A DNA stretch of 64,000 nt from Escherichia coli. GTDB lineage: Bacteria > Pseudomonadota > Gammaproteobacteria > Enterobacterales > Enterobacteriaceae. Positions within the stretch are counted from its first letter, which is position 1, and each line of letters opens with the position of its first letter. The notes beneath the pieces are model-generated. The model saw nothing but the letters and a program-made list of their open reading frames with translations, made no database searches and was not told the DNA's origin. Positions 61,083 through 61,240 of the stretch are shown here, piece after piece. A program made the translations under genes and the position numbers. The DNA lies in NCBI RefSeq assembly GCF_046105845.1, contig NZ_CP151004.1; one strand, written 5' to 3'.

Positions 61083-61092
61083 AATCGCTCCT

Positions 61093-61240
61093 TAGAGCCT
61101 GGTCCACCAGGCGTAATTGTTGAAGGCAGTTTGAGGCCGGACAGCGCGGAAAAACCGGAGCGTACACGTAGTACGTGAGGATTTTGAGCACTGCCCGGCC
61201 TCAAAATGGCAAATAAAATAGCCTGATGGACCAGGCTCTT
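61093..61240. repeat. About 145-bp near-perfect palindromic element in the hemE-nfi spacer
   Basis: Outer arms tagagcctggtccaccaggc / gcctgatggaccaggctctt, inner arms tttgaggccgg / ccggcctcaaa, palindromic centre acgtagtacgt. Confidence 0.6.

Follow-up and report, generated by a model that had tools for sequence, protein, structure and literature searches.

What occupies the space between hemE and nfi in some lineages of Escherichia coli, and is it a native part of this locus? In the window considered here (the whole stretch of E. coli DNA that was analysed, 64,000 nucleotides long), the two genes are both on the - strand and are separated by a spacer of 156 bp (61083-61238). A preliminary description reported that this spacer consists almost entirely of a long, nested imperfect palindrome and proposed several explanations for it: a mobile insertion (MITE- or RSA-like), a terminator or attenuator, or a structured small RNA. 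We consider it highly probable (about 85%) that positions 61095-61238 are a non-autonomous MITE, a member of a ~144-bp Enterobacterales family that is probably RSA and that is likely moved by an IS5-family transposase in trans. This would explain an unannotated 156-bp spacer of some E. coli lineages as a transposon insertion, not as a regulatory invention.

The hemE-nfi spacer in filled and empty form

The nested inverted repeats are present. The outer arms (61084-61112 and 61221-61249, 29 nt) are 83% complementary and the inner arms (61127-61156 and 61179-61208, 30 nt) are 80% complementary, and the central acgtagtacgt (61166-61176), which had been picked out as palindromic, is a perfect palindrome about G61171. 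Folded on both strands, as had been proposed, the spacer palindrome is predicted to form a long hairpin, with single-strand energies of -89.7 kcal/mol (- strand) and -92.3 kcal/mol (+ strand). Shuffled sequence folds at a mean of about -49 kcal/mol (z = -11.0 for the - strand and -10.1 for the + strand), and none of 200 shuffles reaches the stability of the spacer palindrome.

The spacer was identified at 95% identity or more (megablast) in 305 of 5,426 complete E. coli genomes (~6%), always as one chromosomal copy per carrier genome at that identity, and the carriers include strain 042 and PCN033. The remaining genomes (about 94%) have no copy at hemE-nfi. Using the spacer and 300 bp of each flanking gene as the query, we found empty alleles with flanks that are 99.2% identical; the hemE-nfi region spans 609 bp in the other genomes sampled, compared to 756 bp when filled. 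The empty alleles that were inspected, including those of K-12-type strains, have a 9-bp hemE-nfi spacer. Alignment of two filled and two empty alleles (one of the empty ones from a K-12-type strain) shows that the filled form is longer by exactly 147 bp, equal to a 144-bp element plus a 3-bp duplication, with TTA (within CTTAG) bounding both sides. The empty site reads ...GCTCCTTAGCGGTG... (in the allele alignment it is written ...ATCGCTCCTTAGCGGTGATAC..., with a single TTA), and the filled site reads ...GCTCC-TTA-[144 bp]-TTA-GCGGTG....

Presence/absence polymorphism and a target-site duplication of fixed length are features by which MITEs are recognized, as are terminal inverted repeats, and here the terminal repeats GAGCCTGGTCCACCAGGC and GAGCCTGGTCCATCAGGC are complementary at 17 of 18 positions. 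The element encodes no gene of its own and, as expected for a MITE, it is small, transposase-less and present in multiple copies. The hemE-nfi element is an insertion and not native spacer, with the direction of change read from E. coli data alone; none of the loci retrieved from other species spans the hemE-nfi junction. Together with the dispersed family described below, the filled sites in ~6% of genomes, the empty K-12-type site, the terminal repeats and the 3-bp duplication bear out the early suggestion of a mobile MITE- or RSA-like insertion.

The spacer bases outside of the element (61083-61094) number 12, and comprise the 9 original bases (61083-61091) and the duplicated TTA (61092-61094). 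After insertion, the mRNA reads CACCGC-UAA-[element]-UAA-GGAGCGAUU-AUG, and the C-terminus of HemE (...SEQYHR, followed by the stop) is the same in filled and empty alleles. Because the target triplet is duplicated, the hemE stop codon and the UAAGGAG ribosome-binding context of nfi are both kept. Thus, the insertion is close to neutral for coding, and a TAA-targeting element can enter a stop codon without harm to either of the neighbouring genes. The features of the locus are listed in Table 1.

Table 1. Features of the hemE-nfi locus (positions are those of the window)
Feature	Position	Strand	Remarks
nfi (endonuclease V), downstream gene	60411..61082	-	156 nt past the hemE stop, formerly 9 nt
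Target-site duplication, copy 1 (TTA on +, TAA on -)	61092..61094	.	On the mRNA strand UAAGGAG is rebuilt, the nfi Shine-Dalgarno context
Non-coding palindromic element, probable MITE, 144 bp, ends GAG...CTC	61095..61238	.	Filled/empty alignment, family alignments, boundaries of 47 copies
Left terminal inverted repeat, GAGCCTGGTCCACCAGGC	61095..61112	+	Itself a small hairpin, GCCTGG/CCAGGC
Inner palindrome arms and central hairpin (61160-61176)	61127..61208	.	Most conserved core of the family
Terminator-like motif (weak candidate), hairpin AGCCUGGUCCAUCAGGCU then AUUUUAUUUG	61210..61237	-	Consensus scan; first met by the hemE transcript
Right terminal inverted repeat, GAGCCTGGTCCATCAGGC (read on the - strand)	61221..61238	-	One mismatch relative to the left repeat
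Target-site duplication, copy 2, the hemE stop codon TAA	61239..61241	-	Filled/empty alignment
hemE (uroporphyrinogen decarboxylase), upstream gene of the pair	61239..62303	-	Coding sequence unaltered by the insertion

A repeat family of the Enterobacterales

Related sequences were identified by sensitive blastn in 5,425 of the 5,426 E. coli genomes, at 78-86% identity. The number of places per genome has a median of 5 and a range of 1-9, and is 6 in K-12. The BLASTN count that had been recommended thus gives a hemE-nfi copy that is strain-specific, about five diverged copies per genome, and a K-12 spacer without the element. An ordinary spacer that is fixed in all E. coli and has no other copies, the outcome that would have made the palindrome unremarkable, is clearly at odds with these counts. 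Family copies at cysP-ucpA, qseE-qseG, rlmL-ycbX and pyrH-frr are all intergenic and can be aligned with the element over its full length; four of the six K-12 copies were placed, as the similarity search listed one place per record. The rlmL-ycbX copy occurs at the same site, with identical flanks, in Escherichia albertii (locus L015) and E. coli (locus L005). Thus, it predates the split of these species, and some E. coli copies are old and fixed. One pyrH-frr copy is found with the core chromosomal genes tsf-pyrH-frr-ispC on NZ_AP023206.1 (locus L007, 288671-291788), a sequence from E. coli TUM18781 whose record calls it a 404-kb plasmid.

The conserved core of the family is CAGCGCG....AACCGG.GCGTACA...GTACGTGA. 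A scan for the core as an exact pattern, with one genome per species, yielded at least 120 loci. Among the core matches listed, 117 of 120 are in Enterobacterales; of the remaining three, those in Chloroflexota and Methylobacterium were not counted as family members, and the third is from a MAG whose label goes no further than Proteobacteria. Genera represented among the matches listed are Yersinia, Photorhabdus, Edwardsiella, Erwinia, Pectobacterium, Dickeya, Serratia, Rahnella, Hafnia, Citrobacter, Enterobacter, Kluyvera, Klebsiella and Pantoea, along with Salmonella arizonae and others, and some genomes give 6-12 loci each among these matches.

We delimited 47 non-redundant family copies with good ends, 30 of which are 144-145 bp long. 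The flanking triplets are TAA/TAA in 15 copies and TTA/TTA in 12, and the mixed combination TAA/TTA occurs only once. As the middle base is concordant in 27 of the 28 copies with TWA flanks, the family makes a true 3-bp TWA duplication, not a TA duplication. The rebuilt target consensus is H-TAA-G.

Variation in length and in the palindrome itself was also seen. Long family forms (200-208 bp) contain ~63 additional bp in the right half, always inserted at the same point, after GTGAGGAT (loci L025, L027, L030, L033, L034, L055, L068 and others; e.g., L027:310-516, reverse strand). They occur in Yersinia, Photorhabdus, Citrobacter, Pectobacterium, Edwardsiella hoshinae and a soil MAG, and Photorhabdus also has forms bearing ~24 extra bp in the left half. 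Internal insertions at a fixed site are known for ERIC, and the fixed-site insert of the long forms recalls these. In the window copy (61127-61208), the palindrome is better than that of the family consensus. Compared to the other E. coli copies, both of its inner arms, GAGGCCGG and CCGGCCTC, have changed, and a similar pair (GAGGTCG/CGACCTC) is found only in a copy from Kluyvera ascorbata (L127:3174-3317).

A table taken from the K-12 GenBank record gives RSA as a repeat of 150/151 bp with 6 occurrences (PMC5172473). The family described here has the same dimensions, since 144/145 bp and two 3-bp flanks make 150/151 bp, and it is found at 6 places in K-12. We conclude that the family most probably corresponds to the repeats that were called 'RSA' when the genome of E. 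coli K-12 was first annotated, an assignment that is probable rather than proven and is based on length, copy number and the 1990s literature. RSA repeats have been described as palindromic. Those of K-12 are intergenic, as is the hemE-nfi family, although the hemE-nfi copy is not among the six K-12 copies and the K-12-type site is empty. A survey of RSA repeats was reportedly made by Bachellier et al. in 1999. Lacking are RSA features in the current K-12 records NC_000913.3 (MG1655) and NC_007779.1 (W3110). In the full-text literature that was searched, we identified no statement that links RSA to a TWA duplication or to an IS5-family partner. MITEEc1 (= ERIC) is the only ISfinder MITE name that was encountered in the full-text literature, and the paper on Photorhabdus MITEs leaves its four other MITE types without further description. 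If the assignment is correct, the poorly characterised RSA-type repeats gain an anatomy (a length of 144 bp, ends of 17 bp and duplication of TWA) and a candidate transposase family. The new content is modest (family anatomy, the TWA target rule and a specific candidate transposase), and the kind of element itself is already known.

ISPrst3-like elements as candidate mobilisers

A hunt through ~1 Mb of retrieved loci for paired family ends that enclose a gene gave three candidates, and a real IS was found only at locus L044. The paired ends at locus L076 were rejected as an IS, the enclosed ORF being unrelated and acetyltransferase-like. At L044 (Edwardsiella ictaluri, L044:4308-5332), a family MITE is arranged head to tail with an 871-bp IS, with one TAA shared between them. 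This IS is flanked by TAA and its transposase is split into two ORFs, which match NCBIfam NF033580 (IS5 family transposase) and Pfam DUF4096 and DDE_Tnp_1. Relatives of 865-868 bp were identified on plasmids of Klebsiella, Enterobacter, E. coli, Proteus (annotated ISPrst3 family) and Vibrio. The rebuilt transposase of the E. coli plasmid relative matches NF033580 with 278.6 bits (cut-off 110), and also DUF4096 and DDE_Tnp_1, and the transposase annotation records a programmed frameshift. Full-length copies of the IS are present in 292 of 5,426 E. coli genomes, where they are mostly chromosomal.

The seven ISs that were inspected end in GAGCCTATCCCAATAGG / GAACCTATCCCAAAAGG or close variants, and matched TTA or TAA duplications occur at six of the seven. 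The consensus end of the MITE family, GAGCCTATCCCAGTAGG, is identical to the IS end at 16 of 17 positions and is accompanied by the same TWA duplication. Subterminal motifs are also alike in MITE and IS (AATTGT..CAG at one end, a hairpin and a TTTTA run at the other). With the window element read on the + strand, its 61095 end is similar to the end that lies upstream of the transposase in the related IS, and its 61238 end to the one that lies downstream. The similarity is confined to the ends, with no match between the MITE interior and the IS. Thus, only the ends are shared, and the term "deletion derivative" would go beyond the evidence. In short, the ISPrst3-like ISs (NF033580, ~865-872 bp) have GAG...CTC termini and a 3-bp TTA/TAA duplication, as does the MITE, whereas the MITE lacks a transposase gene, is 144 bp long and has an unrelated, palindromic interior.

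The window copy departs from the canonical family ends, which begin GAGCCTATCCCA. Its ends, GAGCCTGGTCCACCAGG, have only 12 of 17 positions in common with the IS end, and represent a 'TGG' variant that is also found in Enterobacter and Erwinia mallotivora. None of the seven inspected ISs has the end variant of the window copy (GAGCCTGGTCCA); all carry CCTATC(C/T)CA, or CCGATCCCA at one E. ictaluri end. Thus, the true mobiliser of the window copy may be a different relative. For the family, the shared ends and the shared TTA/TAA duplication make these ISs likely mobilisers, and the simplest reading of the sequences is that the family is likely a MITE using the ends of the ISPrst3-like IS group and its transposase in trans.

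Most likely, an ISPrst3-like transposase (DDE, with a programmed frameshift), supplied in trans, bound the two ends of the element, which was then integrated with duplication of 3 bp at a TWA trinucleotide that in this case is part of CTTAG (coding strand, TAAG). The target in this lineage was the hemE stop codon TAA, and the hemE-nfi gap, 9 nt in the empty allele, became 156 nt.

Judged by its nearly complementary ends and its intact duplication, the hemE-nfi copy is better preserved than any other in E. coli. None of the other E. coli copies is nearly identical to it, the best being ~85% identical, and it is 88-89% identical to copies from Photorhabdus and Erwinia. The element occurs on two flank haplotypes, one of the type seen in the window (61043-61278) and the other represented by L010:461-696. 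The latter is from the O103 strain ML775, in which both flanks are K-12-like within 40 bp. Between ML775 and the window, the element is the same apart from 2 nt at its left end (GGTTCAAC versus GGTCCACC). The two flank haplotypes and the lack of a donor in E. coli suggest that the element was imported or is an old polymorphism that recombination has moved about, and that a recent local jump at hemE-nfi is less likely. The filled or empty state of the hemE-nfi site provides a simple lineage marker.

Alternative explanations and possible effects on nfi

One alternative is a native regulator of the locus, with the palindrome acting as a large intrinsic terminator or attenuator that sets transcription into nfi and yjaG. 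The whole element is a -90 kcal/mol hairpin, and the first 18 nt past the hemE stop (mRNA strand) form a hairpin that is followed by AUUUUAUUUG, a hairpin-plus-T-run layout that both the family and the related IS retain at this end. For the terminator or attenuator that had been proposed, the 6-bp hairpin and the U-tract past the hemE stop are a weak candidate; the stem at 61210-61237 has a predicted energy of only -9.7 kcal/mol (z = -1.2), no better than shuffled sequence, and there is no U-tract after the large hairpin. Nor is there an orientation bias relative to the flanking ORFs across 79 family copies (29 versus 23 in tandem contexts). The same sequence occurs at unrelated loci and in many genera, and the ~94% of E. 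coli without the hemE-nfi copy have, where inspected, the 9-bp spacer. A native, evolved regulator is already contradicted by the population data, and we consider this reading unlikely. We regard as quite unlikely a structured small RNA or cis-acting RNA, in which the hairpin would be under RNA-level selection as an RNase III site or mRNA stabiliser, a role that has been reported for ERIC in Yersinia. What favours it is strong covariation. In the consensus structure of 31 short-form copies, 95.9% of pair cells hold standard pairs, and at 17 of the 43 pairs both partners have changed in a compensatory way; none of 500 shuffles reaches the observed pairing values, and sliding the partner columns abolishes the signal. 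Interior pairs covary too (columns 42/109, 44/107 and 59/93), and the interior was not used in choosing the copies. Part of the signal is nevertheless expected, as the outer helix consists of the putative transposase-binding ends and copies were chosen for good ends. Departures compatible with wobble pairing are equally frequent on the two strands (~30 G-T versus 29 A-C cells, with one fixed G-T pair left out), which fits a DNA-level palindrome and not one transcribed strand. A scan of Rfam 15 identified no family at gathering score (the best was sX9, with 31.7 bits against a threshold of 44), and the sub-threshold matches (sX9, miRNA models and the S15 leader) were treated as chance. No outward-facing promoter that could drive the element was identified, and the single weak consensus match points inward. 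The compensatory changes are not strand-specific, and the small RNA suggested at the outset finds no counterpart in these results; given the wobble balance, the unbiased orientation and the lack of an Rfam match, we read the symmetry as DNA-level rather than as that of an RNA gene.

The remaining alternative, an IS630-type MITE (ERIC/IRU, i.e., MITEEc1, or YPAL) or a BIME/REP cluster, has in its favour a long enterobacterial intergenic palindrome of similar size. ERIC/IRU and its Photorhabdus relative MITEPlu5 are ~125-bp enterobacterial intergenic palindromic MITEs, and YPAL / RU-2 of Yersinia is a palindromic MITE-like repeat of ~167 bp in Enterobacterales, all of which are properties that recall the hemE-nfi family. 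ERIC and MITEPlu5 also have a very stable predicted hairpin, have longer variants with internal insertions and are sometimes found in stop codons (PMC6267812). By eye, the centre of the element loosely resembles that of ERIC, but the resemblance is not significant in alignment. Using ERIC and YPAL sequences from PMC2759123, the best local alignment to the 127-bp ERIC consensus has a score of 18 (shuffle mean 15.1, with 59 of 500 shuffles as high), and that to the 168-bp YPAL repeat scores at the shuffle mean, so neither repeat shows sequence similarity to the element beyond that of shuffled sequence. These alignments and the sub-gathering Rfam scores agree with the preliminary description, which had recognised no REP, ERIC or Box C match. 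ERIC-type elements duplicate TA and resemble IS630 ends (PMC6267812), whereas the hemE-nfi family has a TWA duplication with a concordant middle base, and IS5-type ends. The identity is refuted by the alignments, the duplication and the end comparisons, and we assign it almost no probability.

For the MITE favoured here, an effect on nfi is possible. A very stable hairpin would enter the presumed hemE-nfi co-transcript, preceded by the weak hairpin and U-tract, and it could uncouple translation of nfi from that of hemE, or lower or process the read-through transcripts. Candidate routes are thus a loss of coupling in translation, termination of some transcripts, or cleavage or other processing at the long hairpin. 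A further mechanism, in which the nfi ribosome-binding site would be occluded, was dropped, as the predicted accessibility of this site is nearly unchanged (unpaired probability 0.49 in the filled and 0.53 in the empty allele), and any effect on nfi is therefore uncertain. The filled and empty alleles form a natural pair (156-nt versus 9-nt gap) in which the effect of a MITE hairpin on expression of nfi (endonuclease V) could be read. A broader proposal is that RSA is a single Enterobacterales MITE family, mobilised by ISPrst3-like elements, with an interior that is actively maintained (by selection or arm-to-arm correction) and a hemE-nfi copy that, in some E. coli lineages, alters expression of the DNA-repair gene nfi. 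Active maintenance is suggested by the pairing, which is kept through compensatory changes across genera. Taken as a whole, we hold this proposal to be conceivable but rather doubtful.

Two minor matches were noted near the element. The animal miRNA model mir-584 matches the nfi coding sequence (60620-60744, - strand) with 30.2 bits against a threshold of 80; the matched stretch of coding DNA forms a long, imperfect hairpin, and the match is almost certainly due to chance. A weak sigma-70-like match (TTGAGC-18 nt-CATAAT, 61056-61085, + strand) overlaps the start of nfi and points into the element, antisense to hemE and nfi, and the number of such matches is about that in shuffled sequence.
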